Part shown: piece after piece, positions 709-26,904 of the stretch
Layout: each line of letters begins with the position of its first letter
Numbering within the stretch: position 1 is the stretch's first letter
Source of the DNA: Acidimicrobiia bacterium
GTDB taxonomy: Bacteria; Actinomycetota; Acidimicrobiia; Spongiisociales; UBA11373
Assembly: GCA_016215655.1 (NCBI GenBank)
Contig: JACRIT010000077.1
Coordinates: 6,928-70,927, forward strand
Direction of reading: 5' to 3'
Length of the DNA stretch: 64,000 nt
The notes under the pieces: generated by a model
Told to the model about the DNA's origin: nothing
Databases searched by the model: none
What the model saw: only the letters and a program-made list of their open reading frames with translations
Program-made: the position numbers and the translations under genes

Positions 709-746
709 GATAATCGATGATAGGTGAGTGATTACCGACCCGTCAA
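709..746 (-). promoter_or_regulatory. sigma70-type promoter (TTGACG-18-TATCAT) overlapped by operator variant GATAATCGATGATA
   Basis: Minus-strand -35 at 741-746 and -10 at 717-722. 709-722 matches the palindrome at 2863 and 26862 at 12/14 positions. Confidence 0.6.
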
Positions 747-882
747 TCGGAGGACTCGCTGCCATCCCATCCCCGTGTTCGACGCCCGACGGACCGTATC
801 CCGCGCCCCGGTGTCCGGCCAGGGCCCTCCGACCCTCCCCACCCGGCGTTCGGTGAAGGCCCGAGCGGTACCCTCGCCGGCG

Positions 883-2112
883 ATGCACCGGGTCATCCAG
901 CACTTCCCCCGCCCCACCCTTCCCGACCTCGGCGCCGCGATCCGCGCCGAACTGGATCGCCCGGAGGTGGCAGCCCGCCTCGAACCGCTCCACACGGTCG
1001 CGCTGGCCGTGGGGAGCAGGGGCATCGCCCACCTCGCCGAGATGGTGACGGCGCTCGTGGCAGCGTTGCGCTCCCGTGGCCTCGACGTCTTCATCGTCCC
1101 CGCCATGGGCTCACACGGCGGAGCGACCGCCGCCGGCCAGGAGGCGGTGCTGGCTCACCTCGGGGTCACCACCGAGCGGGCCGGAGCTCCGATTCGCAGC
1201 AGCATGGAGACGGTCGAGATCGCCACGGTGGCATCTCCCCACGGCCACGACATCCCCGTCATGTGGGATGCCATCGCCTGGAGGGAGGCCGATGCGGTGA
1301 TCCCGGTGAACCGCATCAAACCGCACACCGGCTTTCGGGGCCCGGTCGAGAGCGGCCTGTGCAAGATGCTCGCCATCGGCCTGGGCAAGCACGCCGGGGC
1401 CCGAGTCCTCCACGGTGAGGGTTATGTCGTCTTCGACCGGCTCATCCACGACGCCGGCCGGGCCATCGTCGCCACCGGCCGGGTCGCATTTGGACTGGGG
1501 ATCATCGAGAACGCCTATGGCGACGTGAGCCTCATCGAGGCCGTGCCGGCAGATCGGATCCCCGAGCGCGAGCCCGAACTCCTCGACCAGGCGCGCCGTC
1601 TCATGCCCCGCCTCCTCATGCCCGCGGTCGACGTGCTGGTCGTCGAGGAGTTCGGCAAGGACATCTCCGGTGTCGGCATGGACGCCAACATCACCGGACG
1701 GGGTGAGACCGGCGGGGCGCTCCCCCGGTTCGACGGACCGGTGATCACGCGCATCGTCGTGCTCGGCCTCACCGAAGCCGCCGGAGGCAACGCCCACGGA
1801 ATCGGACTGGCCGACTTGATCACCCAGCGCGCCTTCGACCAGATCGACCGCAACGCCACCTGGATCAACTCGCTCACCGCGGGGTCGCTGGCGGCGGGGA
1901 AGACCCCCATCGCCCTCCCCACCGACGACGAAGCGATCGCCGCCGCCACCCGCTCGCTCCCGGGAATCGCGCCCGAGGCCGCCCGGGTGGTGCGCATCAA
2001 GAACACCCTGCACCTCACCGACATCGCGGTGTCCGACACCCTGCTCGAGACCTGCCGGGCCACGCCGGGGTGCGAGGTCGTGGGTTCCTGGGACGGCACC
2101 TGGCGAGTCTGA
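883..2112 (+). CDS. LarA N-terminal-like / DUF2088-DUF362 family protein
   Basis: Motifs AVGSRGI, PAMGSHGG, NRIKPHT, ESGLCKM.AIGLGK, GKDISGVGMD.N. Start uncertain (853 GTG or 883 ATG). Confidence 0.7.
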   Translation: MHRVIQHFPRPTLPDLGAAIRAELDRPEVAARLEPLHTVALAVGSRGIAHLAEMVTALVAALRSRGLDVFIVPAMGSHGGATAAGQEAVLAHLGVTTERAGAPIRSSMETVEIATVASPHGHDIPVMWDAIAWREADAVIPVNRIKPHTGFRGPVESGLCKMLAIGLGKHAGARVLHGEGYVVFDRLIHDAGRAIVATGRVAFGLGIIENAYGDVSLIEAVPADRIPEREPELLDQARRLMPRLLMPAVDVLVVEEFGKDISGVGMDANITGRGETGGALPRFDGPVITRIVVLGLTEAAGGNAHGIGLADLITQRAFDQIDRNATWINSLTAGSLAAGKTPIALPTDDEAIAAATRSLPGIAPEAARVVRIKNTLHLTDIAVSDTLLETCRATPGCEVVGSWDGTWRV

Positions 2113-2203
2113 TGGCGTCACCACGAGGTGACCAAAGCCAGTGGTGGGCATGCACCGCGGCGGCATACCGTGCTCAGGGGCGACGCGTCCATGGAGACGG
2201 ACC

Positions 2204-2704
2204 ATGCCCGATTCGGAGCTCTCGGTTCGCACCCGTCAGTTGTTCCTGCGTGACGACAACACCTACGGATGTGCCGAGGCGACCCTGATCGCCCTCCAGG
2301 AGCACTGGTCGCTGCCCGACCCGGCCGATTCCGGTGCCGCCATGGCCCTCAACGGCGGCATCGCCTACTCCGGAGGACCGTGCGGGGCGATCACGGGTGC
2401 GGCCCTCGCCGTGGGTCGCCTCGCCCAGGAGCGCATCCCCCATCACCGGTGGGCCAAGATCGCGGCGCGGCTCATCATCCAGGAGTTGATGGCCGACTTC
2501 ACCGCGGCGCACGGTGCCACCGACTGCCACACCCTCACCGGGTTCGACATGACGACGAACCATGCCGAGTTCATTGCCAGCGGCGTGTGGCGCACCCGGT
2601 GCATGGACCAGATCGACTTTGCGGTCGCCCGGCTCGCCCCCCTCGGTGATTGCGACGTCTGGGATGCGCTGATGCAGCGTTTCGGCATCCCGGGGGCCGG
2701 CTGA
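2204..2704 (+). CDS. C-GCAxxG-C-C family redox-active protein
   Basis: YGCAEA...GGPCGAITGA...TDC...C cysteine pattern. GGAG RBS before ATG 2204. Confidence 0.8.
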   Translation: MPDSELSVRTRQLFLRDDNTYGCAEATLIALQEHWSLPDPADSGAAMALNGGIAYSGGPCGAITGAALAVGRLAQERIPHHRWAKIAARLIIQELMADFTAAHGATDCHTLTGFDMTTNHAEFIASGVWRTRCMDQIDFAVARLAPLGDCDVWDALMQRFGIPGAG

Positions 2705-2825: not shown

Positions 2826-2876
2826 TTGACTGGTCCAGACCGGCTGCGTATCGTAATACATCGATAATCGATTATC
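2826..2876 (+). promoter_or_regulatory. sigma70-type promoter (TTGACT-17-TATCGT) followed by perfect palindromic operator GATAATCGATTATC (2863-2876)
   Basis: -35 at 2826-2831, -10 at 2849-2854. The palindrome lies just downstream of the predicted start site, upstream of the cupin gene. Confidence 0.7.
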
Positions 2877-2894: not shown

Positions 2895-3290
2895 ATGCTC
2901 AAGGCGGTACGGCGTGAAGAGGCCCAGGTCTTCCATCTCCCCGGACGCGACTGGTACCACTCCATCGGCCCGGAGACCGTGGGCGCCCACCACATCACCG
3001 TCGGGTGGGCCTCCTTCCCGGAGGGATCCGCTCCCCCCGGGCACGTCCACCCCACCCAGGAGGAGGTCGTCTTCATCGTCTCCGGCCACGGCCAGCTGAT
3101 CTCCCCCGACTCCACCGTCGCACTCGAGCCCGGCGTCGCCGTCTACATCCCCATCGGCACCCTCCACGCCACCGTATCTCACGGCCCCGGGCCGCTCGAG
3201 ATGGTCTGTTCGTTCTCACCACCGGTGGCTCCAGGCTCCTACGAGGATCCGAGCAAGGTCACCAGGTCCCAGCAGGGAGATGCTCGATGA
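2895..3290 (+). CDS. cupin domain protein
   Basis: GHVHPTQEEVVFIVSGHG and YIPIGTLH cupin metal-binding motifs. Confidence 0.85.
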   Translation: MLKAVRREEAQVFHLPGRDWYHSIGPETVGAHHITVGWASFPEGSAPPGHVHPTQEEVVFIVSGHGQLISPDSTVALEPGVAVYIPIGTLHATVSHGPGPLEMVCSFSPPVAPGSYEDPSKVTRSQQGDAR

Positions 3291-4165
3291 CCCAACAGGC
3301 CCATCTCGCCGCACCCGGCATCGCCGAACTCGAAGACCTGGCCCGCCAGGCCCGCGCCCACATCGTGCGCACCATCGCCGGCGCGCATGGCGGGCACCTC
3401 GGTGGTCCCCTGTCCGTGATCGACATGCTCATCGCCCTGTACTTCCGAGTGCTGCGCGTCCGACCCGACGAGCCGACGTGGGACGATCGTGACCGCCTGG
3501 TCCTCTCCAAGGGGCACTCCTCGATCGCGCTCTACACGGCGCTGGCGATGCGGGGCTACTTCCCCATTGCCGAGCTGAGGACCTTCGACGCCATCGACTC
3601 CCGCCTCCAGGGCCATCCCGACATGACCATCACCCCCGGGGTGGACATGTCATCGGGGTCCCTCGGACTGGGCTTTTCGGCGGCCCTCGGCATCGCTCTC
3701 GGTGCCAAGGCCGCCGGCAAGGGTTTCACCACCTATGCCATTCTCGGCGACGGCGAGTGCAACGAAGGCATCGTCTGGGAGGCGGCGCATGTCGCTCCAC
3801 GCCACGGCATCGACAACCTCATCGCCATCATCGACCACAACAAGTTGCAGCAGTTCGGGTGGCGCGGAGCGAGCGCGACCGATCGCCTGCCCGCCTACAC
3901 CGGTACCCAGTTGGTCGATCGCTGGTCCGCCTTCGGGTGGCGGGTCCTGGAGATGGACGGTCACGACATGTCCTCCATCCTCACGACGCTCGAACAGGCC
4001 CGCGCCGTACGGGGCGTGCCCGTGGCGATCGTGGCCCACACCGTCAAGGGCAAGGGTGTCTCCTTCATGGAGAACGACTTCACCTGGCACGCCCGGGTGC
4101 CCAATCCGCAGGAGGCCGCAGCCGCGCTGGCCGAGCTGGAACCCGCGGGAGGAGGTGGGTCATGA
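3287..4165 (+). CDS. transketolase, N-terminal (TPP-binding) subunit
   Basis: GGHLGG, DRLVLSKGH, LQGHP, GSLGLG, GDGECNEG TPP motif, TVKGKGV. ATGA overlap with the cupin stop. Confidence 0.92.
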   Translation: MTQQAHLAAPGIAELEDLARQARAHIVRTIAGAHGGHLGGPLSVIDMLIALYFRVLRVRPDEPTWDDRDRLVLSKGHSSIALYTALAMRGYFPIAELRTFDAIDSRLQGHPDMTITPGVDMSSGSLGLGFSAALGIALGAKAAGKGFTTYAILGDGECNEGIVWEAAHVAPRHGIDNLIAIIDHNKLQQFGWRGASATDRLPAYTGTQLVDRWSAFGWRVLEMDGHDMSSILTTLEQARAVRGVPVAIVAHTVKGKGVSFMENDFTWHARVPNPQEAAAALAELEPAGGGGS

Positions 4166-5118
4166 CGCTGGCGCCGGGAAAGGCCCTGCGATTCGTCTGG
4201 GGCGAGGAGTTGGCAGAGCTCGCCAAACGAGATCCACGCATCGTCGTCCTCGACGGTGACCTCGGCAGCTCCACGGGCGCCTACATCTTCGAGGAAGCAC
4301 ATCCCGACCGCTTCTTCCAGATGGGTATCGCAGAACAGAACCTGCTCGGCGCCGCGGCCGGCATGGCCACCGTCGGGTTCGTCCCCTTCGTCTCCACCTT
4401 TGCCTGCTTTTCGGTGGCACGCGCCCTCGACAGCATTCGCGTGCTGATCGCCCAACCGAAGCTGAATGTGAAGATCACCGGCGGCTACGCCGGATTGCTG
4501 GCGAGCATGACCGGCAAGACCCATCTCATGTGGGACGACGTGGCGATCATGCGCTCCATGGCCTACATGACCGTCGTCGCACCCGCCGACGACAACGAGG
4601 CCCGCCAGGCGATTCGCGCCATCGTCGACTATCACGGTCCCGTCTACCTGCGCCTCACCCGATCGGACTCCCCGACCCTGTTCGGCCCCGACTACCGGTT
4701 CGTGCTGGGCGACTCGGTGGTGGTTCGGGAAGGGAGCGACCTCACGGTGTTCTCCACGGGGGTCCACACCACCCGGGTGTACGAGGCCGCCGAACTCCTC
4801 GCGGCCGACGGCATCGACGTGCATCTGGTGCACGTCCCGACCATAAAGCCCCTCGATGAGGAGGGCATCGTCACCGCGGCACGGCGCACCGGATTCGTGG
4901 TGACCTCGGAGGAACACACCATCATCGGCGGGCTCGGGGGTGCGGTTGCGGAGACGCTGTCGGACAGGTACCCGGTACCCGTGAAGCGGATCGGGCTCGC
5001 CGACACCTTCGGCGAGTCGGGCAGCGACGCGGCCCTGCTCGACAAGTACGGCATCTCCTCGGAGAAGACGGCTTCCGCCATCAAGGCACGGTTTCTCGAC
5101 TGGAAGAAGAACGCCTGA
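4162..5118 (+). CDS. transketolase, C-terminal subunit
   Basis: DGDL..ST, QMGIAEQN, GPVYLR, TIKPLD, EEH..IGGLG. Confidence 0.92.
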   Translation: MTLAPGKALRFVWGEELAELAKRDPRIVVLDGDLGSSTGAYIFEEAHPDRFFQMGIAEQNLLGAAAGMATVGFVPFVSTFACFSVARALDSIRVLIAQPKLNVKITGGYAGLLASMTGKTHLMWDDVAIMRSMAYMTVVAPADDNEARQAIRAIVDYHGPVYLRLTRSDSPTLFGPDYRFVLGDSVVVREGSDLTVFSTGVHTTRVYEAAELLAADGIDVHLVHVPTIKPLDEEGIVTAARRTGFVVTSEEHTIIGGLGGAVAETLSDRYPVPVKRIGLADTFGESGSDAALLDKYGISSEKTASAIKARFLDWKKNA

Positions 5119-5188
5119 GCGGGCGGCCGGCGCAGGCGCGGCTGGGAGTGCGGTCCTCGCGCGGGAAGAGCTCGTACAAGGAGACGAC

Positions 5189-5974
5189 ATGAACATCCAA
5201 GACCGGTTCCGGCTCGACGGGAAGGTCGCCCTCGTTCCCGGCGGCGGCGGCGCCATCGGCTCGGCCATCGCCATGATGCTCGCCGAGGCCGGGGCCTGCC
5301 TCGCGGTGGTGGATCGCTCGGCGGAGCTCGTCGAGAAGACCGTGACCGTGATCTGCGAGCGCGGTGCCAACGCGCTTCGCCTTCCCGGCGACATGACCAC
5401 CGAGGCCGATGCCGACCGGGTGGTGGCCCAGACCCTGGACACCTACGGACGCCTCGACATCATCGTCAATGCCATCGGCGGTGGCGCCGGCAAGGTGCTC
5501 TTCGCCGCCCAGGAGTACCCCCGCAAGGAGTGGGATTGGATCTACGAGCTCAATGTCCGCGCCACGCTGCTGCCCACCCAGGCGGCGGTGCGGGCGATGA
5601 TCGCCGGCGGCCATGGCGGCCGGGTGATCAACATATCGTCGGTGCGCGGCCAGCTCGGCATCAATGCCGGCTACTCGGCCTACGTCGCAGCCAAGGGGGC
5701 GATCAGCTCGCTCACCCGGCAGTGGGCCACCGAGTGGGCGCCGCACGGCATCACCTGCAACGCCATCGCCCCCACCTTCGTCGACACCCCGCAGGTGGCG
5801 ATGCTGCTCGGCGATCCCAAGTTCAAGCAGGCTCTGGTATCGCGCATCCCGGTGGGCCGGGTCGGCCAGCCCGAGGACCTGTTCGGCGCCGTGCTGCTGT
5901 TCGCCTCGGAGGCCTCCTCGTTCATCACCGGACAGATCCTCACGATCGACGGGGGTCTGACCGCCACCCAATGA
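5189..5974 (+). CDS. SDR family oxidoreductase
   Basis: GGGGAIG Rossmann motif, NISS, YVAAK catalytic YxxxK, NAIAP, ITGQ.L.IDGG. Confidence 0.92.
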   Translation: MNIQDRFRLDGKVALVPGGGGAIGSAIAMMLAEAGACLAVVDRSAELVEKTVTVICERGANALRLPGDMTTEADADRVVAQTLDTYGRLDIIVNAIGGGAGKVLFAAQEYPRKEWDWIYELNVRATLLPTQAAVRAMIAGGHGGRVINISSVRGQLGINAGYSAYVAAKGAISSLTRQWATEWAPHGITCNAIAPTFVDTPQVAMLLGDPKFKQALVSRIPVGRVGQPEDLFGAVLLFASEASSFITGQILTIDGGLTATQ

Positions 5975-6027
5975 ACCGGCCCTCGCCGTCAACCCATCCC
6001 CACCCGATGTGCCCCGAAGGAGCTTTC

Positions 6028-6891
6028 ATGGAACAGGTCACCGCCAAGGTCTACACCAACACCAAGCTGCGCGGGTGCAACCCGAGCTTCGTGGTCACCA
6101 ACGACGGGGTGGTGGTCATCGACACCCCGCAGCTGCCCACCAAGGCGGTGGCGATGCGGAAGGAGGCCGAGCGGCACGGCCCGATTCGCTACCTGATCAA
6201 CACCGAGCACCACGTCGATCACATCTTCGGCAACTACTTCTTCAAGGGTGCCGGCACGGTGATCGCCCACCGCCGCCTCGACGAGAACTTCATGGTGGTG
6301 GGGCCGGACCTCGATCCCTTCGCCTACGCCAAGGAGGCGATCCCCACCGACGATCCCGACGGGGCCAAGATCTTCCCCGAGCGCGACGAGTACTACAACG
6401 ACCCCAACCGCCCCTCGGTGACCTTCACCGGCGACGTCACCATCAAGCTCGGTGGCCTCACCTTCGAGTTGATCCATACCCCGGGCCACACCCCGGGCCA
6501 GGTCACGGTGTACATCCCAGAGGAGCGGGTGGCGTTCACCGGTGACACCATCTTCAGCGAGTGCCAGACCTGGCTGCTCACATCGAACATCGACGAATGG
6601 CTCGCCGCGCTGGATCGCATCCGTGAGCTCGACTTCGACCACCTCGTCCCCGGCCACGGTCCGGTGACCACGAAGGCGTACCTCGACGTCCAGCGCAGCG
6701 TGCTCATGGAGTGGGTGACCGCGGTGGCGGCGGCCATCGCCAAGGGTTGGTCGCGCGACGAGGTCATCGCCCGGGTCCACTTCCGTGAGCGCTGGCCGGT
6801 GGATGTCGGCCAGGGCTACATGATGGATCACATTCAGACCAAGAACGCGGCATCCCTCTACGACAAGTTGATCGCGGGACGACGGGCCTGA
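6028..6891 (+). CDS. MBL-fold metallo-hydrolase
   Basis: NTEHHVDHIFGN, TPGHTPG, FTGDT, VPGHG. AAGGAG RBS. Confidence 0.88.
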   Translation: MEQVTAKVYTNTKLRGCNPSFVVTNDGVVVIDTPQLPTKAVAMRKEAERHGPIRYLINTEHHVDHIFGNYFFKGAGTVIAHRRLDENFMVVGPDLDPFAYAKEAIPTDDPDGAKIFPERDEYYNDPNRPSVTFTGDVTIKLGGLTFELIHTPGHTPGQVTVYIPEERVAFTGDTIFSECQTWLLTSNIDEWLAALDRIRELDFDHLVPGHGPVTTKAYLDVQRSVLMEWVTAVAAAIAKGWSRDEVIARVHFRERWPVDVGQGYMMDHIQTKNAASLYDKLIAGRRA

Positions 6892-6956
6892 CCGACGGCC
6901 CGGACCGGGCCGCGATCGACACGACACCGCGGCGATCACCACGACGAGGAGGCCTC

Positions 6957-8162: not shown

Positions 8163-8187
8163 GAACCGATACCCGCATCACGATCCT

Positions 8188-8312
8188 TCCCCCCTTGTGG
8201 GGGAAGTGCCTCGGCGAGCGAAGCGAACCGAGGCGATGGGGGGTCACAGCCCCGCACGCCCAAACACCCCCCACCGCCCGCCTGCGGCGGTCGGCTCCCC
8301 CACAAGGGGGGA
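8188..8312. repeat. REP/RIME-like miniature palindromic element
   Basis: Perfect 17-bp terminal inverted repeat TCCCCCCTTGTGGGGGA (8188-8204) / TCCCCCACAAGGGGGGA (8296-8312), with nested internal hairpins. Confidence 0.75.
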
Positions 8313-8385
8313 GCGATGGCGCCGTCCATCGGGCATCTGGCATCTGGTGTCTGATTCCTCGCAAGTGGCACCTGGCGCCTCGCTG

Positions 8386-9279: not shown

Positions 9280-9307
9280 GAGTGCGCGCAGATAGGCTCA
9301 CCCCGGA

Positions 9308-9343
9308 ATCAGGTATCGGCCCAAGATCGGGCCGATATCTGAT
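9308..9343. terminator. stem-loop between hisJ-like and LLM genes
   Basis: ATCAGGTATCGGCCC-AAGATC-GGGCCGATATCTGAT forms a 15-bp stem with one G-U pair. No U-tract. Confidence 0.45.
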
Positions 9344-9384
9344 GGAACCCGTGACCTATGTGCGCGCACTCTGAGGAGCCGACG

Positions 9385-16650: not shown

Positions 16651-16673
16651 GTCAGAGGCCCCCGGGACCCCTG
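16651..16673. repeat. 23-bp direct repeat, copy 2 (GTCAGAGGCCCCCGGGACCCCTG); minus-strand hairpin after the flavodoxin stop
   Basis: Matches 11902-11925. Confidence 0.55.
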
Positions 16674-16690
16674 ATCTCTCCGTAAGGTGA

Positions 16691-17191: not shown

Positions 17192-17205
17192 GGTCCTCGG
17201 CTCCT

Positions 17206-18261: not shown

Positions 18262-18262
18262 C

Positions 18263-19153: not shown

Positions 19154-21396
19154 GGGCGCTCCTGCAATGCCCGCCACACCCGCTCGGGTGAGAGGGGCAG
19201 GTCGCGGATCACGGCACCGGTGGCATCGCGCACCGCCGCCGCCACCGCCGGTGCGGTGCACAGCAGGCTCCCCTCGCTGATGCCCTTCACCCCGTAGGGG
19301 CCCGGGCCGTCGCCGTTCTCCACGCTGAAGCTGTGCAGCTCCCTGGGGAGGTCGAGGCTGGTGGGGATGCGGTAGTCGATGGCACCGAGGTTGCGGGTGC
19401 GGCCGTCGTCGCCCCAGATGAGATGCTCCATCAAGGACAAGCCCACCCCCATCACCGCGGCGCCCTCGTCCTGGCCGGTGACCTGGATCGGGTTCAACGC
19501 CAGCCCGACGTCGCCGACGGTGACGTGGCGCAGGATGTCGGTCTCACCGGTCTCCTCGTCGACCTCGGCCTCGATGGCGGTGCAGTTGAACTCGAAGAAG
19601 AGGGCGGTGCCGCCGAGCGGGTGCTCGGGCAGGGCGTCCTTGCGGGCCTCGCCGTTGCCGACGATCTCGCCGCCCATCCGTCCCAGCACCTTCTTCAGGA
19701 CTGCGGGAAGCGCCTCCTCCCCGCCGGGGAGACGCATCACCCCGCGATCGACGGAGATGGCGGCCTCCTCGATCCCCTCCATGTCGGCCATACGCGCCTT
19801 GAGCTTGCGCTGGATGTCGCGGCAGGCGTTGAGGACCGCATTGCCCATCAGCACCGAGGAGCGGCTCGCCGAGGTCTGCTGGTCGTAGGGCACGACCGCG
19901 GTGTCCCCCATGACCACCGAGACGCTGTCGAGCGGGATCCCGAGTTCCTCGGCGACGATCTGGGCATAGATGGTGCGGGCGCCCTGGCCCATGTCGGAGG
20001 TGCCGGAGAACACGATGGCGCTGCAGTCGGCGAGGAACCGCACCGTCGAGTAGGACAGCCCGGTGGTCGGTCCCGACTTCAGGCCGATGGCGATGCCGCG
20101 GCCCCGGCCCGGCGGCACCGGCGTCCCCCACCCGATCTCCTCGGCGGCCTTGCGCACGGTCTGCGCCCAGTCGCCGTCGGCGGGGGTGTCGCCCGGGACG
20201 TGCTCCTCGCCGTACTTGACCAGGTTCTTCAGCCGGATCTCGAGCCGGTCGACTCCCGCAGCGATGGCCGCCTCATCGAGATTCGACTCGCGCGCCCAGG
20301 TGACCTGGGGGATGCCGAAGCCCCGCATCGGATGGGTCGGGGTGGTGTGCGACAGCACCGCCCGCGAGACGATGCGCACCGCCGGGGTGCGATACGGCCC
20401 CGCCGAGAGGAACGAACCCTTGGCACTGACCCGGTCGCCGGTGTCGCCGTAGCACCCCACGAGGAACTCGTTGACGAAGTCCTGGAACACCAGGGTGCCG
20501 TCCGCCTTGATCCCGGTGCGGACCCGCATCCGGGCGCCGGTACTGCGCACCGCCTGGAACGCCTCCTCGAGGGTGAGGATCAGGCGGACCGGCTGCCCGG
20601 CGCGCACCGCCATGAACGCCACCAGCGGCTCGAGCTTGGTGTGCTGCTTGCCCCCGAATCCTCCACCGGGGTCGGGCGCAAACACCCGCACCTTGGCCAT
20701 GGGGATCCCCAGCACCTTGGCGACGGTCTTCTGCAGCTGATAGGGATGCTGGATGCTGCTCCACACCGCGATGCCGTCTCCATCGGGAGCGGCGATGAAC
20801 CCGTGGGGCTCGATGGCGAACTGGGTCTGGCTGGGCCAGTCGTAGGTGTTCTCCACGACGATGTCGGCGTCGGCGGCGGCGGCATCGACGTCGCCCCATC
20901 CGAATCGGTACTCGGAGAGGATGTTGCTGGCGATGTGCGGTCCCGGTCTGCGGATCGCCGGGTCCTGGACCAGCTCGGCCCCGGGAGCCAGGGCCTCTTC
21001 CAGCGTGTGGATCGCCGGCAGCACCTCGTACTCCACCTTGACCAGGAGCGCCGCCTCCTCGGCGATGTCCTTGGTGTCGGCGACCACGGCAGCCACCGCC
21101 TCACCGTGGTACTTGGTCTCGCCGTCGGCCATGACCGGACGGTCCTGATACTCCGGCCCGAAGCGCGGCATGGGCTTGGGGAGGTCGTCCGGCGTCATCA
21201 CGAAGTGGACTCCGGGGAGGGCGATGGCGGCGGAGGTGTCGATGGAGAGGATGCGGGCGTGGGCGCAGTCGAGGGTCACCAGCTTGGCATGCAGCATGTC
21301 GGCGAGAGGGATGTCGGCGACGTAGCGCTGGCCTCCGGTGACCCGTCCCACTCCCCCGATGCGCTGCGCCCGGGCCCCGACGCCCTGATCCTTCAT
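19150..21396 (-). CDS. xanthine dehydrogenase family molybdopterin-binding (large) subunit
   Basis: VTG...Y..D, IEPHG, GGGFGGK, MRGFG, DMGQG, GPYGVKGISE. Confidence 0.92.
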   Translation of the reverse strand: MKDQGVGARAQRIGGVGRVTGGQRYVADIPLADMLHAKLVTLDCAHARILSIDTSAAIALPGVHFVMTPDDLPKPMPRFGPEYQDRPVMADGETKYHGEAVAAVVADTKDIAEEAALLVKVEYEVLPAIHTLEEALAPGAELVQDPAIRRPGPHIASNILSEYRFGWGDVDAAAADADIVVENTYDWPSQTQFAIEPHGFIAAPDGDGIAVWSSIQHPYQLQKTVAKVLGIPMAKVRVFAPDPGGGFGGKQHTKLEPLVAFMAVRAGQPVRLILTLEEAFQAVRSTGARMRVRTGIKADGTLVFQDFVNEFLVGCYGDTGDRVSAKGSFLSAGPYRTPAVRIVSRAVLSHTTPTHPMRGFGIPQVTWARESNLDEAAIAAGVDRLEIRLKNLVKYGEEHVPGDTPADGDWAQTVRKAAEEIGWGTPVPPGRGRGIAIGLKSGPTTGLSYSTVRFLADCSAIVFSGTSDMGQGARTIYAQIVAEELGIPLDSVSVVMGDTAVVPYDQQTSASRSSVLMGNAVLNACRDIQRKLKARMADMEGIEEAAISVDRGVMRLPGGEEALPAVLKKVLGRMGGEIVGNGEARKDALPEHPLGGTALFFEFNCTAIEAEVDEETGETDILRHVTVGDVGLALNPIQVTGQDEGAAVMGVGLSLMEHLIWGDDGRTRNLGAIDYRIPTSLDLPRELHSFSVENGDGPGPYGVKGISEGSLLCTAPAVAAAVRDATGAVIRDLPLSPERVWRALQERP

Positions 21397-21869
21397 GAGC
21401 CCACCTCCTCGGCGGCGGCAAGCACCGCCTGGCGACTCTGTTCGTACCCGGCGCAGCGGCACAGGGTGCCGGCGAGCGCTTCGTTGATCTGCTCGGGTGT
21501 CGGATGGGGGGTGCGTTGCAGGAGGGCGCGCGCCGACATCAACTGGCCGGGAATGCAGAACCCGCACTGGGCGGCACCGGTGTCGAGGAACGCCTGCTGC
21601 AGGGCGTCGAGTTGCCCGGAGGGCGCCAGGCCCTCGACGGTGAGCACGTCGGCGCCATCGGCCTCGGCTGCGAGCATGAGGCAGGAGTTCACCGATCTGC
21701 CGTCCACGATCACCGTGCAGGCACCGCACTCGCCGACCACGCAGCACTCCTTGGTGCCGGTGAGGCCGATGTCGTCGCGCAACACGTCGAGCAGGGTGTG
21801 GCTGGCGGCGATGTCGAGCACCCGGAGGCGGCCGTTGACGGTGAACTCGAGGTGGAAGGTGTCGGTCAT
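21393..21869 (-). CDS. xanthine dehydrogenase family 2x[2Fe-2S] (small) subunit
   Basis: GTKECC..GECGACTV, QCGFCIPG, CRCAGY. Confidence 0.93.
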   Translation of the reverse strand: MTDTFHLEFTVNGRLRVLDIAASHTLLDVLRDDIGLTGTKECCVVGECGACTVIVDGRSVNSCLMLAAEADGADVLTVEGLAPSGQLDALQQAFLDTGAAQCGFCIPGQLMSARALLQRTPHPTPEQINEALAGTLCRCAGYEQSRQAVLAAAEEVGS

Positions 21870-22726
21870 GCGGTCCTGCCTAAGCGTTCGATGGCGGTGT
21901 TCAGGGCCCGGGCTCCGAGAACCGGAAGCATGGCGGCACGGTATTCGGGTCCGGCGCGCATCGAGGTCTTAGAGGGGGTGGCCTTGGCGAACAGCGCCGC
22001 CAGCACCGGCGCCTTCGCCTCCCGGCTCGCCGCGGGATCGGCGAGCACCCCGGTGTCGTCGACCACGAGCCAGGCTCGGGGACCGACGCTCCCATAGGCG
22101 ACCCGGGTGGTCCCGGAGGCATCGACCCCGCAGCACAGGGTGATGGAGGCGAGATCGGTGCCGTGGCGACGGGTCAGCCGGGTGTAGGCGGCGGCGATGG
22201 TGCGATCCATGGGCAGCTCGATGGCGACGACCATCTCCCCCGGGCCCAGCGCCACCTTCCCGGGGCCGAGGACGAACTCGTCGATGGAGAGCCGGCGCCT
22301 CCCCTTCGGCGAGGCGATCACCATCTCCGCCCCGTACACGAGCAGGGGCGGGGTGGTGTCGGCGGCCGGCGACCCATTGCAGATGTTGCCCACGAGCGTC
22401 GCCCGGTTGCGGATCTGCACCGACCCCACCACCGCGGCGGCCTCGGCCAGGGCGGGGAACCGCTCCGCCACCACCGGGTCACGCTCCAGATCGGCCATGA
22501 CGGTCGCCGCGCTGATGACGAGCCGCCCGCCCTCGACACGGATGGACGGGCGCAACTCCTCGATCCCCTTCAGGTCGATGACGACCTCGGGAGTGCGCCA
22601 GCGATTGCGCAACTCGATGACCAGATCGGTGCCACCGGCGAGGAGCCGCGCCTTGTCGCCATGCTCCTCGAGGAGGGCGAGCGCCTCCTCGACGGTCGAC
22701 GGCCGGAGATACCTGAAGGCCTGCAT
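21866..22726 (-). CDS. xanthine dehydrogenase family FAD-binding (medium) subunit
   Basis: LAGGTDL, QIRNRATLVGNICNGSPAAD. Confidence 0.93.
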   Translation of the reverse strand: MQAFRYLRPSTVEEALALLEEHGDKARLLAGGTDLVIELRNRWRTPEVVIDLKGIEELRPSIRVEGGRLVISAATVMADLERDPVVAERFPALAEAAAVVGSVQIRNRATLVGNICNGSPAADTTPPLLVYGAEMVIASPKGRRRLSIDEFVLGPGKVALGPGEMVVAIELPMDRTIAAAYTRLTRRHGTDLASITLCCGVDASGTTRVAYGSVGPRAWLVVDDTGVLADPAASREAKAPVLAALFAKATPSKTSMRAGPEYRAAMLPVLGARALNTAIERLGRTA

Positions 22727-22730
22727 CAGA

Positions 22731-23615
22731 TCACCTCAGCACCTTGTCCGCCTCGTCCATCAACGCCTGGGGGTTGGCGGCTCGGATCATGTAGTAGGGC
22801 CGGACACAGAAGGTACCCAGGAAGGCTGCCCGGCTCCGGCGCCGTTCCACGGTGTCGACCACGGGCATCGGCCACCCGGAGACGAGCAGCTCGTTGAGGT
22901 GCAGGTAGTTCTGCACCGAGTGCAACGACTGGTACTCCCGCTCGTAGGGGATCATCTCCTTGAGGCTCGGATCGAAGTTGCCGTCGATGGCGGGGACCAG
23001 CACGACATCGACGTTGCTCGCATCGCGATACTCGGTCCACGTCGGCATCGTGTCGCCGAAGAAGATCTGCGCGCCCCGCTCGGGAGCGGCCTTGTCGGCC
23101 CGCTCGGTGCCCTTCTCGCGATTCTTGATGAACACCGTCTTCGAACCCAGGACGGCGACGCCCTTCTCGTCGATCACCGTGGTCTCGGTGGAGATCAGCT
23201 GTCCGCCCCGACGGCAGGCCTCGATCTGGCTCATGCTCTTGCCGTGGTTCGACTCGCCCCCGAGGAGAAGCACGGTCTTGCCGTGGTAGCGGACGGCGGC
23301 CGAGTGAAAGGGGTGCAGGCCGTGATCTTCGAGCTTGAGGGTGAGCAGGGAGATGATGGCCTTCTGGATCGGGCCGACGGCCCACGGCCCATCGAAGCGC
23401 ATGGTGCGGCCGTCCCACTCCACGGACAGCGGGGCATCGAGGTTCCACACGAGATCGGGATCGCCGAGGGTGACCTGGGGATCGACCCGAACCTCGGCGA
23501 GGCGGTAGTTGAGGAACTCCATGCTCTCGAGGACGTGCTCGGGCACCTTGGTGCCGGTCACGTCCACCCGAATCCGGGCGGGCCCGGCCGACATCTGCTC
23601 CGTGAGCTGTGACAT
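22731..23615 (-). CDS. hypothetical protein with HprK/PEPCK-like P-loop kinase signature
   Basis: FHSAAVRYHGKTVLLLGGESNHGKS...RGGQLISTET resembles the 'HASAV..G..L..G.SG.GKST...L.DD' pattern of HprK-like kinases. GAGGAG RBS. Confidence 0.55.
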   Translation of the reverse strand: MSQLTEQMSAGPARIRVDVTGTKVPEHVLESMEFLNYRLAEVRVDPQVTLGDPDLVWNLDAPLSVEWDGRTMRFDGPWAVGPIQKAIISLLTLKLEDHGLHPFHSAAVRYHGKTVLLLGGESNHGKSMSQIEACRRGGQLISTETTVIDEKGVAVLGSKTVFIKNREKGTERADKAAPERGAQIFFGDTMPTWTEYRDASNVDVVLVPAIDGNFDPSLKEMIPYEREYQSLHSVQNYLHLNELLVSGWPMPVVDTVERRRSRAAFLGTFCVRPYYMIRAANPQALMDEADKVLR

Positions 23616-23633
23616 TCCTGCTCCTCGTCTACA

Positions 23634-23664
23634 CGCAATTCGCAGTGCGCAGTGCGCAGTGCGC
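23634..23664. repeat. heptamer tandem repeat (CGCAGTG) x~4
   Basis: CGCAATT CGCAGTG CGCAGTG CGCAGTG CGC. Confidence 0.75.
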
Positions 23665-23684
23665 CACTCAACCCTCCCGCGGGA

Positions 23685-23709
23685 GCCCGGGCCCCGTCGG
23701 GGCCCGGGC
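23685..23709 (-). terminator. GC-rich hairpin after the PEP-utiliser gene
   Basis: GCCCGGGCCCC-gtc-GGGGCCCGGGC, 11-bp perfect stem, about 20 nt after the stop. Confidence 0.5.
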
Positions 23710-23729
23710 ATCACCGCGTTCTCTTCCTC

Positions 23730-25457
23730 CTACGACAGGATCTCGACGAGACCCTTCGTGCCGTCGACACGGATCTTGTCGCCGGTCTTGATCTTCAACG
23801 TGGCCACCGACGTGCCGATCACCGCCGGGATCCCGAACTCCCGGGCCATGACCGCCGGATGCGACACCACGCCGCCTGCGTCGGTGACGATGCCGGCGAT
23901 CACCGCAAACAGCGGCGTCCAGGCCGGGTTCGTCATCTGGCAGACCATGATGTCGCCGGGGTTCACCTGATCGAACTCGTCGATGCTCAGGACCACCTTG
24001 GCGGTGCCTTCGACCACGCCCGGCGATGCCGCCAGACCGGTCACCTGGCCCTTCTCCGCCTTCGCCCGGGTCAGCTTCTCGGGGAAGCCCCACAGGTTGA
24101 GATACGGGAAGGCCAGTTGGCTCTCCGTGGCGGTGCCGATGAAGTCCGGCGGGCGCAGCTTGTAGGACTGCTTCCGCTCCTCACGGCGCTTCTTCACGAT
24201 GCTCCGGGCGTCGTATCCCTTGAGGTCGCCGAGCAGATAGCGCAGCTCGTTGTACTTCAGGAAGATGACGTCGTCGGGCTCGTCGAGCGCCCCTTCCTTC
24301 ACCAGCTTCTTGCCGATGCAGATCAGGACCACCCGCATGTGCTGGTTGGTCCCCTGGTCGATGTAGAAGTGGTGGTCCGGTGTCAGCGGCGCCATCTTCA
24401 GGTTGATGTCGTTGGCCGCCTTCATCTTCTCCAACGCCTCGCCCTTGAGCCCCTTGAGCATCTCCTCGGAGGCCGCCTTGATGTCGGCCGCGAGCGCCTT
24501 CATCGCCTTCGGGTTGTCGTAGTCCGAGTCGAGATAGCCCTTGATCACGTCGAGCACCGGGCCGGCCTCTTCGTAGCGGCTGGGGAAGATGAACTCGTGG
24601 CTCCACACGGCGTGCCAACCGAATTCCTTCTGGTACTCGGCGACCTCGTCGAGGAGCTTCTTGCCCTCGGCCGACTTCATCAGTTCGGCGTGGATGTCCA
24701 TGCCGGTCTTCTTGAAGGCCTCGGTGAGGACCTTGCTCTTCTTCGCCGTCTCCTTGATCTTCCACAGCTTGTCGAGGGCGTCCCAGTTGCGGTCTGCCGC
24801 CGAGTTCTGCAACCGGCCCAGCAGGGTCTGATCGACCTTGCCGTGCACCTCCTGCATCACCGCCTGGAGGTTCAATGTCGCCGACAGCTGGGCGAAGTTC
24901 AGCATCCAGTGGATCTTCCAGTGGCGATCATGGATGTCCATCGCATCCTCGAGGATCGTCGCCCACTCCATCAGCGGGATCTCGTCCCACTTGAAGATCT
25001 TCGACTCGAGGTAGTCGAGGTTGCGCCGCATCTCGGGGACGAGGCGCTCCCGCCACCAGGTGGCGAAGTTGAGCCCGTAGGTGGGCAGCACCGCGCCCAG
25101 GTAGGCCCCGATCCGCGTCGCATACTCCGGATCGAGGTTGATCCGCGGGTGATACGTGCTGCCGTACTCCATCGCCGGGACCTCGAAGTCGTGGTCCTGA
25201 GGGATGGCCGCCGTGTAGAGATACCCGTTCACGTTCTTGGCCGTCCAGTCGACGGCGAACGGCGTCCCGAAACGGCGGAACATGTGGTCGCAGCTCAGCC
25301 ACCAGCCGCCGATGTCGAAGTACATCGGGGACAACGGCTGGGGGCAGTGCAGGTCGTCGTAGACCCAGAAGAGCTTCTTCTCGGCCTCGGACTGCCACTG
25401 GACGGGGAACTCCGGTGACCCGAAGAACTCCGCCACCACCTTGCTCGTGTCTGCCAT
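23730..25457 (-). CDS. PEP-utilising enzyme with C-terminal phospho-histidine swivel domain (phenylphosphate synthase alpha / rifampin phosphotransferase-like); no ATP-grasp domain
   Basis: C-terminal G..ASPG.VEG.A, MTNPAWTPLF, TDAGGVVSHPAVMAREFGIPAVIGT. N-terminal FWVYDDLHCPQPLSP resembles PpsA-like proteins. Confidence 0.8.
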   Translation of the reverse strand: MADTSKVVAEFFGSPEFPVQWQSEAEKKLFWVYDDLHCPQPLSPMYFDIGGWWLSCDHMFRRFGTPFAVDWTAKNVNGYLYTAAIPQDHDFEVPAMEYGSTYHPRINLDPEYATRIGAYLGAVLPTYGLNFATWWRERLVPEMRRNLDYLESKIFKWDEIPLMEWATILEDAMDIHDRHWKIHWMLNFAQLSATLNLQAVMQEVHGKVDQTLLGRLQNSAADRNWDALDKLWKIKETAKKSKVLTEAFKKTGMDIHAELMKSAEGKKLLDEVAEYQKEFGWHAVWSHEFIFPSRYEEAGPVLDVIKGYLDSDYDNPKAMKALAADIKAASEEMLKGLKGEALEKMKAANDINLKMAPLTPDHHFYIDQGTNQHMRVVLICIGKKLVKEGALDEPDDVIFLKYNELRYLLGDLKGYDARSIVKKRREERKQSYKLRPPDFIGTATESQLAFPYLNLWGFPEKLTRAKAEKGQVTGLAASPGVVEGTAKVVLSIDEFDQVNPGDIMVCQMTNPAWTPLFAVIAGIVTDAGGVVSHPAVMAREFGIPAVIGTSVATLKIKTGDKIRVDGTKGLVEILS

Positions 25458-25484
25458 GCGTGTGCTCCTTCCTGGCTCACTCCA

Positions 25485-26813
25485 TCAGACGGTCTGTCGA
25501 ACGGGGGCCGGCTGACGCCGGCTTGCCTCGCGTCCTCTTCCTCCTCCATCACGCGTGTAGCTGGGGTCTCGGTCCGTTGCCTGGATACCTGCCGGGCGCC
25601 ATGTGCGATAGAGCCGATTGGCGCATTCGGCCATGGCCTCGGCGAAGCGTGGATCGTTGATGTCGGTGTCGCTCGCCACGACCTCGATCGCTGGCAGGAG
25701 CGAGCCGCGCAGGGCTTCGAACAATGCGGCATCTGCCGCCGGATCGTGGAACGGCCCCCCCTTCACCGCCAGGGCCGAGATGCCCCGCAGCGGGATGAAG
25801 ACCGCCACCGGCCCGCGGGAGGCGTTGAGCTTCCCGGCCAGGATGGCTCCGAGCTGGGCACACTCCTCGGGTGTGGTCCGCATGAGCGTGATCGCCGGGT
25901 TGTGCACCAGCAGGTTGCGATGCCGGTACCGCGGCGGCACCGTGTGCATCGGGCCGAAGTTGGCGATGTCGAGTGCGCCCAGCGACACCACCTGGGGCAG
26001 GCCGAGAGCACCCGCCACCTCGAGGCGTTCCGCTCCGGCCGACAACTCGCCGCCCACCAGCTCGTCCACGAGCTCGGTGGGGGTGACGTCGAGCACCCCG
26101 GTGATGAGGCCCTGGCGCATCAACGCCTCCATCGAGCGGCCCCCGGCCCCGTTGGCATGGAACACGAGGACCTCATAGCCGTGGTACTCGAGCCAGCGGC
26201 GCGCCGCGGTCACCCCGGGAGACGTCACTCCGAACATCGTGGCGCCGATCACCGGCGCCGGGGCGTCGACGATGCGCTCGGCGGCGTACGCCCGGGCCAT
26301 CCCGGTGATGGCTCCCGCGGCTTGGCCGAGGACCCGCCGCAGGATCCGGTTGTTGCCGGCGATGTCCACGACCGAGTGCACGATGGCGATGTCGGCTCCG
26401 CCGACGAAGGCCCTCATGTCGCCGCCGGCCATGGTCGAGACGATGAGCTTGGGGAACCCGATGGGCAGCGCCTGCATGGCCGCCGCCACCACCGCGGTCC
26501 CGCCGGAACCCCCCATGCCTGCCACCGCATGGATCCGCCGGTCGGCCACCATCCGCGCCAGGAGCGCTCCGGCCCCCCTGCCCATGGCGGTGACGATGTT
26601 GCCCCGATCGCCCTCCGCCAGCAGCCCCTCGAGGTCGGCGCCGGCGGCCGCCAGGACCGCGCCGCGACCGACATCGGGTCCGATCTGGGGTTCACCGAGC
26701 ACGCCCACGTCGACGAGGACGACCCGACATCCGGCTTCCTCGACCCGCCGTTTGAGGAATCCGTACTCCTCGCCCTTGGTGTCGAGCGTTCCGACCAAGG
26801 CGACCGTGGGCAC
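25485..26813 (-). CDS. Tm-1-like ATP-binding domain protein (UPF0261)
   Basis: GTLDTKGEE, GGSGGT, LPIGFPKLIVST, SVVDIAG.N, TMFGVT, VFHA.G.GGRSME, HNP.ITLMRTT.EEC. Confidence 0.88.
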   Translation of the reverse strand: MPTVALVGTLDTKGEEYGFLKRRVEEAGCRVVLVDVGVLGEPQIGPDVGRGAVLAAAGADLEGLLAEGDRGNIVTAMGRGAGALLARMVADRRIHAVAGMGGSGGTAVVAAAMQALPIGFPKLIVSTMAGGDMRAFVGGADIAIVHSVVDIAGNNRILRRVLGQAAGAITGMARAYAAERIVDAPAPVIGATMFGVTSPGVTAARRWLEYHGYEVLVFHANGAGGRSMEALMRQGLITGVLDVTPTELVDELVGGELSAGAERLEVAGALGLPQVVSLGALDIANFGPMHTVPPRYRHRNLLVHNPAITLMRTTPEECAQLGAILAGKLNASRGPVAVFIPLRGISALAVKGGPFHDPAADAALFEALRGSLLPAIEVVASDTDINDPRFAEAMAECANRLYRTWRPAGIQATDRDPSYTRDGGGRGREASRRQPAPVRQTV

Positions 26814-26861
26814 TGTGACTCCCGTGCCGTGGCTCCGAAAGGGAGCCCCTGCGAAATCCTC

Positions 26862-26904
26862 GATAATCGATTATCAGCCTACGGGAGGGGCTAGGCTGCG
26901 TCAA
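26862..26904 (-). promoter_or_regulatory. sigma70-type promoter (TTGACG-17-TAGGCT) immediately followed by perfect operator GATAATCGATTATC (26862-26875)
   Basis: Minus-strand -35 at 26899-26904 and -10 at 26876-26881. The palindrome is identical to 2863-2876. Confidence 0.72.

Follow-up and report, generated by a model that had tools for sequence, protein, structure and literature searches.

The DNA analysed here is a window of 64,000 nucleotides on contig C53, which belongs to the genome (G000) of an uncultured groundwater Acidimicrobiia lineage. As shown in Table 1, a Liv-type ABC transporter operon, a divergent gene pair, two long operons and an aldehyde dehydrogenase gene are present in its left part. 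The open reading frame of the LarA-like gene covers 724-2112, with the likely start at 853 or 883, and its product matches NCBIfam NF052515 (476.5 bits; cut-off, 400). The C_GCAxxG_C_C protein (Pfam PF09719) is encoded at 2141-2704. The dehydrogenase matches TIGR01722 with 564 bits (cut-off, 448.5). In the UPF0261 operon, the product of 22731-23714 belongs to a 327-aa P-loop protein family, in which Pfam gave only faint matches at E ≤1 (PEPCK_ATP in 9 of 24 members and Hpr_kinase_C in 4 of 24). Therefore, a fold search was needed to place this family, and the PEPCK/HprK fold was assigned by a structure model and a Foldseek search. The first-pass annotation had described the cupin and UPF0261 operons as two distant clusters. 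Their promoters are indeed 24 kb apart, but the distance was overstated: the operons are convergent and only one 4-kb gene (11425-15501) lies between them. Thus, about 30 genes form a single uninterrupted catabolic island of about 31 kb. When a substrate was sought with NCBIfam, the island genes gave generic or below-cut-off matches only.

Table 1. Genes, promoter-like sites and palindrome copies (window coordinates unless C53 is given)
Feature	Position	Strand	Remarks
Liv-type ABC operon	permease 1 start at or before 634; runs left out of the window to C53:2707	-	Pfam BPD_transp_2, ABC_tran, Peripla_BP_6
LarA-like nickel-pincer isomerase and C_GCAxxG_C_C protein	853..2704	+	divergent from the ABC operon
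Operon: cupin, split transketolase, SDR, metallo-beta-lactamase-fold protein, MFS, PHP phosphatase, F420-type LLM, 219-aa protein	2895..10971	+	Pfam, NCBIfam; order kept in relatives
Operon: UPF0261, PEP-utiliser swivel-domain protein, PEPCK/HprK-fold P-loop protein, FAD/2Fe-2S/Mo hydroxylase subunits, PF04199 cyclase, Zn-ADH, flavodoxin-like protein, 371-aa protein	15748..26813	-	order conserved
CoA-acylating methylmalonate-semialdehyde dehydrogenase family gene	27027..28550	+	divergent from the UPF0261 operon; Pfam Aldedh; TIGR01722
Promoter-like site TTGACG-18-TATCAT	717..746	- (746->717)	promoter scan; faces the Liv-type ABC operon; -10 inside copy 1
Promoter-like site TTGACT-17-TATCGT	2826..2854	+	promoter scan; cupin-transketolase operon; ends 8 nt before copy 2
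Promoter TTGACG-17-TAGGCT	26876..26904	-	by eye; -35 26904->26899, -10 26881->26876; palindrome directly after
Operator copy 1 (candidate)	709..722	.	GATAATCGATGATA, 12/14; overlaps -10 of the ABC-permease promoter; region shared with the divergent LarA-like gene
Operator copy 2 (candidate)	2863..2876	.	exact; begins 9 nt past -10, about +2 to +15
Operator copy 3 (candidate)	26862..26875	.	exact; abuts -10 of the UPF0261 operon promoter; 152 nt upstream of the divergent aldehyde dehydrogenase gene

A 14-bp palindrome, GATAATCGATTATC, had been reported to occur twice exactly and once in a 12/14 form (GATAATCGATGATA, two mismatches) in this region, and our scan confirmed all three copies. No further similar site was found in the 64-kb window at up to three mismatches. 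In shuffled windows the mean number of such sites was 0.56, and three were reached in 1 of 100 shuffles. The palindrome has a 6-2-6 layout with the core AT-CG-AT, and at copy 2 another ATCGAT core (2860-2865) stands 7 bp upstream, which makes a three-heptad block. Across the whole genome (2,089,098 bp), the numbers of sites with 0, 1, 2 and 3 mismatches are 2, 0, 2 and 8, respectively. A zero-order model at 68% G+C predicts 0.00026 exact sites, 0.47 sites at two or fewer mismatches (four were observed) and 7.8 sites at three mismatches for the whole genome. All four sites with up to two mismatches are on C53 within 31 kb; the motif is rare in the genome. The fourth site (two mismatches) is at C53:2572-2585, corresponding to window positions -4355 to -4342, about 4.3 kb left of the window. 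With a weight matrix built from the sites of relatives, the four sites score 30.1, 29.9, 24.7 and 21.7 and the next match scores 16.8. It should be mentioned that the information content of this matrix is inflated because its source sites were selected for their similarity to the consensus in G000. Four of the five next-best matches inspected, which are on other contigs, fall within long open reading frames.

A promoter had been proposed at each copy. The promoter scan detected two of them; at copy 3 it gave nothing above threshold, and this promoter was recognised by eye, its -10 hexamer TAGGCT being weak (three of six consensus bases). However, TTGAC(G) and a GTAGGCT-type -10 at the same position are conserved among the aligned relatives (alignment A4), and in eight of the nine aligned UPF0261 promoters the TAATCGATTATCGAGGAT block is kept. 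For the promoter of the ABC permease, TTGAC and the -10 are kept in 7 of 8 aligned genomes, with TATCAT, TATGAT or TACTAT at the -10 place, and the palindrome is conserved as a TATCATCGATTATC-type copy (alignment A5). The claim that both mismatches of copy 1 sit in the -10 hexamer holds. For the cupin promoter, the nine aligned genomes show little or no variation in TTGAC and TATCGT, and TCGATAATCGAT is invariant in 9/9. Conservation in the aligned promoters is limited to TTGAC, the -10 and the operator block.

The motif precedes the orthologous operons in relatives. Counting this genome and eight relatives, a site is present upstream of the UPF0261/PEP-utiliser operon in 9/9 (one with three mismatches) and upstream of the cupin operon in 9/9; upstream of the ABC permease it is found in all eight genomes with a close orthologue (three with three mismatches). 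Furthermore, many Chloroflexota loci possess ATCGAT-centred copies upstream of UPF0261/PEP-utiliser/Mo-hydroxylase, cupin-transketolase and Liv-type ABC operons. Such loci contain 26 occurrences of the motif in 301 kb and 84 in 844 kb, and the reversed control gave 0 in each. These results agree with the proposal of the first-pass annotation that the three promoters form one regulon. In relatives the outer positions of the operator vary freely (GGTAATCG, AACAATCG and CACAATCG), the ATCGAT core is invariant, and dyad symmetry is conserved across two phyla. A wider set of 51 PEP-utiliser operons includes 19 that lack a site at three or fewer mismatches within 350 bp, and a TCATCGATGATCGAT-type variant is present instead at 7 of the 11 site-less loci inspected by eye. 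The LarA-like/C_GCAxxG_C_C pair also stands between sites in relatives, and the dehydrogenase gene (27027..28550) adjoins sites there; these genes are possible members of the regulon.

Pfam scans of 46 open reading frames from the window (at least 95 aa each; about 55 frames passed the GC3 filter) detected no DNA-binding domain in them. A look to the left for a LacI or GntR gene had been suggested. The LacI part failed, but 4.4 kb left of the window C53:1810-2541 (- strand) encodes a GntR/FCD regulator with its own copy of the motif: the fourth site fills the spacer of a promoter-like site, CTGACA-16-TATGAT, in front of this gene. Read-derived short DNA contigs span the gene and the fourth site (X1 record 8, 2093-3000; X2 records 14 and 15, 1666-2569 and 2556-2721). 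The product has a GntR winged helix-turn-helix (PF00392, residues 21-81, 49.2 bits; cut-off, 27) and an FCD domain (PF07729, 93.8 bits; cut-off, 24.3), the best of three FCD matches in the genome. Among NCBIfam models it belongs to no named equivalog; the best match, TIGR03338 (PhnR-type), gave 122.6 bits against a cut-off of 271.5. Residues N142, H146, H190 and H212 align with the metal ligands of Atu1419 from Agrobacterium fabrum, namely Asn137, His141, His192 and His214 (PMC7797058), and each of the three histidines shows at least 90% conservation across the 19 members of the regulator's clade. From these residues, the FCD domain is predicted to contain a metal. In the DNA-binding domain, the phosphate-contact residues R41, E44, S54 and R59 are retained in the clade. 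Gln55 is invariant in 19/19 members and aligns with Arg45 of FadR and Atu1419; four of the five best solved relatives have Arg at this position. The residue after Gln55 (Gly or Ala) did not correlate with the A/T or C/G variant at operator positions 4 and 11.

The C53:1810-2541 gene is the only member of this clade found in the assembly. Most relatives and Chloroflexota loci have a GntR gene of the same clade within the operon, after the PEP-utiliser gene and before that of the P-loop protein. The co-occurrence has exceptions on both sides. G018 and G020 possess a clade member and no site at two or fewer mismatches, and 7 of 26 relatives without a clade member have at least three matches at two or fewer mismatches, regardless of their positions in the genome. 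In our literature search, no paper was found that links TAATCGATTA with GntR, and the papers containing ATAATCGATTAT were all unrelated, as judged on title and abstract.

Together, these observations suggest, with a probability of about 80%, that the palindrome is the operator of a repressor of this GntR/FCD (FadR-subfamily) clade, which would control one catabolic island. We infer that a dimer of the clade repressor would bind the ATCGAT-centred inverted repeat. At the ABC transporter promoter the site overlaps the -10, at the promoters of the cupin-transketolase and UPF0261 operons it is found at about +1 to +15, and at the gene of the regulator itself it occupies the -35/-10 spacer. Because of this placement, a bound repressor would keep RNA polymerase off the promoter or stalled, in line with the repression that had been proposed earlier. 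A substrate or intermediate of the pathway may bind the FCD domain and release the repressor, and the C53:1810-2541 gene would be autoregulated through the fourth copy.

Which paralogue acts in this organism has a serious second answer. The binder of the three window sites may be an operon-embedded paralogue encoded in the unassembled stretch left of C53, and the assembled regulator may then control only its own racemase operon, or cross-bind. We consider this quite plausible, at somewhat less than even odds. Most relatives carry the embedded type, which is absent from this assembly, and wherever this type or its stand-alone equivalent occurs in relatives, a canonical site is found at the operon or gene concerned. 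Moreover, G013 and G022 (98% and 96% complete) possess the embedded type only, yet all three sites are present. C53 ends inside a gene, and same-genus G006 has an embedded-type gene with a site about 3 kb past the equivalent point; synteny with G006 and G012 places the gene just past the contig end. The assembly also lacks orthologues of the genes next to it, namely E1 alpha, E1 beta and the 5' part of the Iso_dh gene. In contrast, the assembly is 97.4% complete and the embedded-type gene was not found in it, and a two-mismatch copy occupies the promoter spacer of the assembled gene. Between the two types, the recognition helices hardly differ (SQGPVREALRDLA versus SQAPVREALRDLA), and the G or A at the differing position does not track the motif variant. 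In G009, G024 and G007, the promoters of the assembled-type paralogue carry ATCGAT-centred palindromes, followed in G009 and G024 by a TATGAT- or TACGAT-like -10; the boxes in these three genomes are without a TAATC half-site, a point in favour of the embedded paralogue as the binder. The tree splits the clade into two paralogue types with moderate support (86/77), with the other type unresolved. Attempts to extend C53 gave little: an exact 40-mer from its end had no match among metagenome contigs, the longest overhang of read-derived short contigs was 49 nt, and a protein scan with the partial Iso_dh fragment gave 80 loci, the best 73% identical and none from this organism.

Regulators outside the clade explain the motif far less well. 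The first-pass annotation had attributed the palindrome to the LacI family. A central CG, which the 14-mer contains, is typical of LacI-family operators, but this feature, read directly from the sequence, is not LacI-specific. A PF00356 search gave no match in the 97.4%-complete genome, whereas the same search was positive in 9 of 14 control genomes. Furthermore, when the cluster genes were compared across relatives, no LacI-type gene was found and the GntR/FCD gene co-occurred instead, as the only regulator that travels with the cluster. The attribution is therefore not supported, and a LacI/PurR-type operator is very improbable. A Fur/Zur-type metal-regulator box is even harder to credit. 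The GATAAT and ATTATC hexamers of the palindrome resemble the Fur box; however, the Fur box is laid out as 7-1-7 or as three hexamers, the layout here is 6-2-6 with variable outer positions around an invariant ATCGAT, and the target genes are catabolic rather than metal-related. It is likewise very improbable that the repeat is a promoter element itself or functionless. GATAAT shares five of six bases with the -10 consensus TATAAT and one copy doubles as a -10, but the position relative to the conserved -35/-10 differs among the four promoters (on the -10, after it or in the spacer), dyad symmetry is kept in two phyla, and the motif is confined to this gene set.

A wider reading of the clade repressor is more tentative, and we would not bet on it as a whole. 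The clade may have swapped the family DNA contact, from Arg45 to the invariant Gln and from GT-NN-AC to AT-CG-AT, and may read tandem self-complementary GATNATC heptads with a third, degenerate heptad at every promoter. The pathway under its control would be an undescribed one of Acidimicrobiia and Chloroflexota. It might open with a three-part phosphotransfer system, consisting of the UPF0261 kinase, the His-swivel protein and the PEPCK/HprK-fold P-loop protein, and continue with the molybdenum hydroxylase and the split transketolase.

If the operator assignment is right, about 30 mostly unnamed genes would be joined in a defined regulon, for which the candidate repressor and the exact operator can be named, and the same unit recurs in many Chloroflexota (Limnocylindrales-type) metagenome genomes. 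The regulon would also offer a handle on the substrate, with the FCD domain for ligand screens and the operator as a reporter. The pairing of Arg-to-Gln with G-to-A would be a natural test of DNA reading in the GntR family, and a UPF0261 kinase, from a family with a single reported activity, would be placed in a new multi-protein setting.

Among known systems, the candidate can be compared with Atu1419 (PDB 6z74, 6za0-6zab), an FCD-type GntR repressor of hydroxycinnamate genes, although the similarity is low (47.7 bits). Both have a winged helix-turn-helix and an FCD domain with metal-site residues, both repress catabolic genes beside their own gene (proposed here), and in both the short palindrome has two bases between the contacted dinucleotides (GT-AT-AC there, AT-CG-AT here). 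Arg45 of Atu1419 reads the essential G of ATGTATACAT by a base-specific contact (PMC7797058). In contrast, Gln55 takes the place of this Arg here and the operator has A instead of the essential G. The operator signature given for the GntR family is (N)yGT(N)xAC(N)y (PMC7797058). The operator here departs from it in the contacted base, with unchanged symmetry and two-base spacing. The regulator has the domain architecture of the FadR subfamily (FadR, PdhR, LldR, NanR and McbR) and matches solved FCD regulators. Further features in common with the subfamily are autoregulation (proposed here) and a palindromic operator that overlaps the promoter; the operator without GT...AC and the replaced base-contacting Arg set it apart. 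The best PDB match is 7xp0/7xp1, a full-length FCD-GntR named 'Probable transcriptional regulator' (the clade profile matched at E = 4.6e-39, the single protein at E = 1.4e-25), which, unlike the clade, has Arg at the Gln55 position. It was considered that 7xp0 might be PmiR; however, the text of the PmiR paper does not contain that code and the identification was dropped. Papers mentioning 7XP0 were unrelated. Operators of the LacI/PurR/CcpA type are likewise AT-rich inverted repeats, about 14 bp long and centred on CG, whose position at a promoter implies repression, but no LacI-type helix-turn-helix was found in the genome and the co-occurring regulator is GntR/FCD. For the enzymes, the comparison is with MarK of Novosphingobium aromaticivorans, a UPF0261 aromatic kinase, whose ATP-dependent phosphorylation of aromatic monomers is presented as the first catalytic activity shown for the UPF0261 domain (PMC12624787). 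Here, a full-length UPF0261 protein is encoded by the first gene of the largest regulated operon. Unlike MarK, it precedes a PEP-utiliser swivel-domain protein and a PEPCK/HprK-fold P-loop protein, and the likeness to MarK is at the domain level.

The first-pass annotation had reported a perfect 14-bp palindrome at two positions and a variant at a third. A scan of the 64-kb window reproduced all three copies: GATAATCGATTATC is exact at sites 2 and 3, site 1 reads GATAATCGATGATA, and no further copy with three or fewer mismatches was found in the whole window. We then give the counts over the source assembly, GCA_016215655.1 (G000; 2,089,098 bp, 96 contigs, 68% G+C, 97.4% complete; the public runs cover the source organism thinly, at a word depth of about 4-7). 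There were 2, 0, 2 and 8 sites with 0, 1, 2 and 3 mismatches, respectively, and the zero-order expectations were 0.00026, 0.016, 0.45 and 7.8. In this genome scan, which had been proposed earlier, all four sites with at most two mismatches are on contig JACRIT010000077.1 (C53; the window covers C53:6928-70927) and fall within 31 kb. The fourth copy, site 4 (GATTATCGATGATC), is outside the window, 4.3 kb to its left. The four sites scored 30.1, 29.9, 24.7 and 21.7 with a weight matrix and the next genomic match 16.8, scores that are partly circular because the matrix was made from relatives' sites seeded by likeness to the G000 consensus. Of the next-best matches on other contigs, four of five inspected fall within long ORFs. 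A search of the published literature for the motif, supplementary files lying outside it, found no paper.

A promoter had been proposed at each of the three window copies. The promoter scan recovered those at sites 1 and 2 and gave no match at site 3, where the promoter is read by eye only. As judged from its position at all four promoter-like sites, the placement is of the repressor type. The two mismatches of site 1 had been noted to fall within the -10 hexamer, and TATCAT, TATGAT or TACTAT is found there in seven of eight aligned permease promoters. In permease promoters the left half-site also serves as the -10 element, which accounts for these mismatches. In alignments of the three promoter sets, TTGAC, the -10 element and the operator block (TCGATAATCGAT, TAATCGATTATCGAGGAT or TATCATCGATTATC(A/G)ATG) are the sole conserved stretches. 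A third degenerate heptad adjoins the 14-mer at every promoter; therefore, ATCGAT-like cores repeat every 7 bp. Either one dimer or two overlapping dimers may bind this arrangement.

The first-pass annotation had also suggested a scan of related genomes, and the motif was found ahead of the orthologous operons. Cluster loci came from eight relatives (G006, G007, G012, G013, G014, G022, G024 and G026), the closest of the same genus and the most distant of the same order. With G000 included, all nine genomes have a site ahead of the UPF0261/PEP-utiliser operon (with three mismatches in G007), and all nine have one ahead of the cupin operon. The ABC permease is preceded by a site in all eight genomes with a close orthologue (three mismatches in G012, G013 and G024); the G026 permease, which is only 50% identical and is within another operon, has no site. 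Two unpublished genomes, G028 and G039, are confined to tallies over relatives, and no claim is based on either.

A wider scan with the regulator profile, one genome per species, gave 78 loci in Acidimicrobiia and, mostly, Chloroflexota MAGs (for example, Limnocylindrales). One of its two search seeds was the recognition-helix peptide, so constancy of the helix in these loci is by construction. Genes in the order PEP-utiliser, GntR, P-loop protein, hydroxylase, cyclase, ADH are met again there, and ATCGAT-centred sites precede this operon as well as the cupin-transketolase and ABC operons. Among operons with upstream sequence available, 25 of 51 PEP-utiliser operons have a site with at most two mismatches, seven have three mismatches and 19 have at least five; the corresponding numbers are 13 and one of 19 cupin operons (remainder, five) and six and one of 11 permease operons (remainder, four). 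Some Chloroflexota promoters instead carry TCATCGATGATCGAT, and a variant of this type was present in 7/11 loci inspected by eye. At two or fewer mismatches, cluster loci contain 26 copies of the motif in 301 kb and 84 in 844 kb; the reversed-motif control gave 0 in both.

The promoters had been described as distant. This was overstated: the cupin and UPF0261 operons converge on each other, and all the parts make up one island. Its genes, annotated by Pfam and NCBIfam profile matches, are listed in the table.

Sites, promoters and genes of the island (window positions unless C53 or its alias L005 is given)
Feature	Position	Strand	Remark
Isocitrate/isopropylmalate-dehydrogenase-family (Iso_dh) gene	L005 1-292		contig starts inside gene; last 96 codons only
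255-aa protein, Asp/Glu/hydantoin-racemase-family protein, GntR+FCD regulator	left of window; regulator C53:1810-2541	-	
Site 4	C53:2572-2585		
Promoter CTGACA-16-TATGAT of regulator gene	left of window		promoter scan; site 4 occupies 14 of 16 spacer bases
G+C-rich hairpin (GGCGGCAGCGGG...CCCGCTGCCGCC), then CCCTTTC	L005 2590-2700		strong; between binding-protein and regulator genes
Liv-type ABC operon: binding protein, two ATPases, two permeases	between sites 4 and 1; first permease starts at 634 or lower	-	
Site 1	709-722		702-722 with third heptad
Promoter TTGACG-18-TATCAT	746->717	-	promoter scan; -10 is left half of site 1
LarA-like nickel-pincer isomerase, then GCAxxG (C_GCAxxG_C_C) protein	724-2112 (LarA-like)	+	between sites 1 and 2; likely start 853 or 883
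Promoter TTGACT-17-TATCGT	2826-2854	+	promoter scan; site 2 starts 9 nt past -10
Site 2	2863-2876		2856-2876 with third heptad
Cupin, split transketolase, SDR, MBL-fold, MFS, PHP phosphatase, F420-type LLM, 219-aa protein	2895-10971	+	
1358-aa double zinc ribbon/adenylate-guanylate cyclase/AAA_16 protein	11425-15501	+	between convergent operons
UPF0261, PEP-utiliser swivel-domain protein, 327-aa protein, FAD/2Fe-2S/Mo subunits (molybdenum hydroxylase); later PF04199 cyclase, Zn-ADH, flavodoxin-like protein, 371-aa protein	26813->15748	-	first three genes, 22731-26813
Site 3	26862-26875		26855-26875 with third heptad
Promoter TTGACG-17-TAGGCT	at site 3	-	read by eye; palindrome directly after -10
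Methylmalonate-semialdehyde-dehydrogenase-family gene	27027-28550	+	right of site 3
Phosphoglycerate-kinase-family gene and gene with GAPDH C-terminal domain match only	28621-30872	-	adjoin island
Fumarylacetoacetate-hydrolase-family gene	31565-32644	-	right of island
Homogentisate 1,2-dioxygenase gene	39749-41035	+	right of island

The LarA-like gene has no Pfam match but scores 476.5 bits (cut-off, 400) against the NCBIfam equivalog "nickel pincer cofactor-dependent isomerase, group 22". No DNA-binding domain was detected in the 1358-aa protein, homologues of which (36-40% identity) flank the cluster in G013 and G024. The hairpin resembles a terminator and would end the ABC operon; it was not called by the scan tool. 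The phosphoglycerate-kinase-family pair is syntenic with the island in most relatives, and a motif copy precedes it in G022; none was found here. The fumarylacetoacetate-hydrolase and homogentisate dioxygenase neighbours hint that the island may be connected with products of aromatic ring cleavage. In G024 and G007, a homologue of the hydrolase lies between the regulator and racemase genes.

The conserved, consecutive trio at the head of the UPF0261 operon looks like a multi-part phosphotransfer system. A single activity has been reported for UPF0261, that of the aromatic kinase MarK (PMC12624787). The sole Pfam match of the 575-aa second protein is a C-terminal PEP-utiliser swivel domain. The 327-aa protein has an invariant GGESNHGKS P-loop, and in Foldseek its predicted structure (mean pLDDT 83.8) matched ATP-dependent PEP carboxykinases (E 3e-8, TMq 0.41-0.44), with weaker matches to HPr kinases. 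The UPF0261 gene is placed elsewhere in some relatives. The genes of the island as a whole point to ATP-dependent phosphorylation, molybdenum-dependent oxidation and C-C cleavage with thiamine, together with a CoA-acylating aldehyde dehydrogenase.

The palindrome had been attributed to a LacI-family protein. This was not supported: a search of the 97.4%-complete G000 assembly found no PF00356 match. For a Fur-type box, the motif has the wrong spacing and variable outer positions, and a bare promoter element is unlikely because the motif is placed differently with respect to -35 and -10 from one promoter to another. The search left of the window, which had been recommended, found a GntR+FCD gene. 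Its product belongs to a clade (support 99/99), separate from other FCD regulators, that is formed by the 19 homologues recovered from relatives by protein search.

The serious competing reading stays within the GntR/FCD family and turns on which paralogue binds the sites. The clade holds an embedded type (subclade support 86/77), whose genes lie within the operon or are free-standing with an upstream site, and a racemase-linked type ahead of the racemase gene, whose basal position is not settled in the tree. The G000 regulator is of the racemase-linked type (64-67% identical to the G012, G009 and G024 proteins), and no embedded-type gene was found in the G000 assembly. In G006, of the same genus, the equivalent of the contig end is closely followed by an embedded-type gene together with a site and two E1-like genes, and orthologues of these genes are absent from the entire G000 assembly; therefore, a second regulator may have been left unassembled beside the end of C53. 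The recognition helices of the two types are nearly identical (SQGPVREALRDLA and SQAPVREALRDLA), and the racemase-linked promoters of G009, G024 and G007 carry ATCGAT-centred palindromes, followed in G009 and G024 by a TATGAT- or TACGAT-like -10. From these features, both types plausibly read one common core.

We compared the regulator with solved relatives. Arg45 of Atu1419 and FadR makes a base-specific contact to an essential guanine, operators of the family follow the signature (N)yGT(N)xAC(N)y, and ATGTATACAT is the sequence bound by Atu1419 (PMC7797058). In the HMMER alignment, R31, E34, S44 and R49 of Atu1419 correspond to R41, E44, S54 and R59 of the G000 regulator, R45 to Q55 and T46 to G56; the metal ligands N137, H141, H192 and H214 align with N142, H146, H190 and H212. 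Q55 is invariant in 19/19 clade members; among the five best solved relatives, four have arginine at the equivalent position. The core GT-AT-AC of the Atu1419 operator and AT-CG-AT here have the same two-base spacing, with A replacing the contacted G; Gln55 would read this adenine. The system is of an ordinary kind, a predicted GntR/FCD repressor that would control its own gene and the catabolic operons beside it. Its operator and contact residue differ from the family norm.
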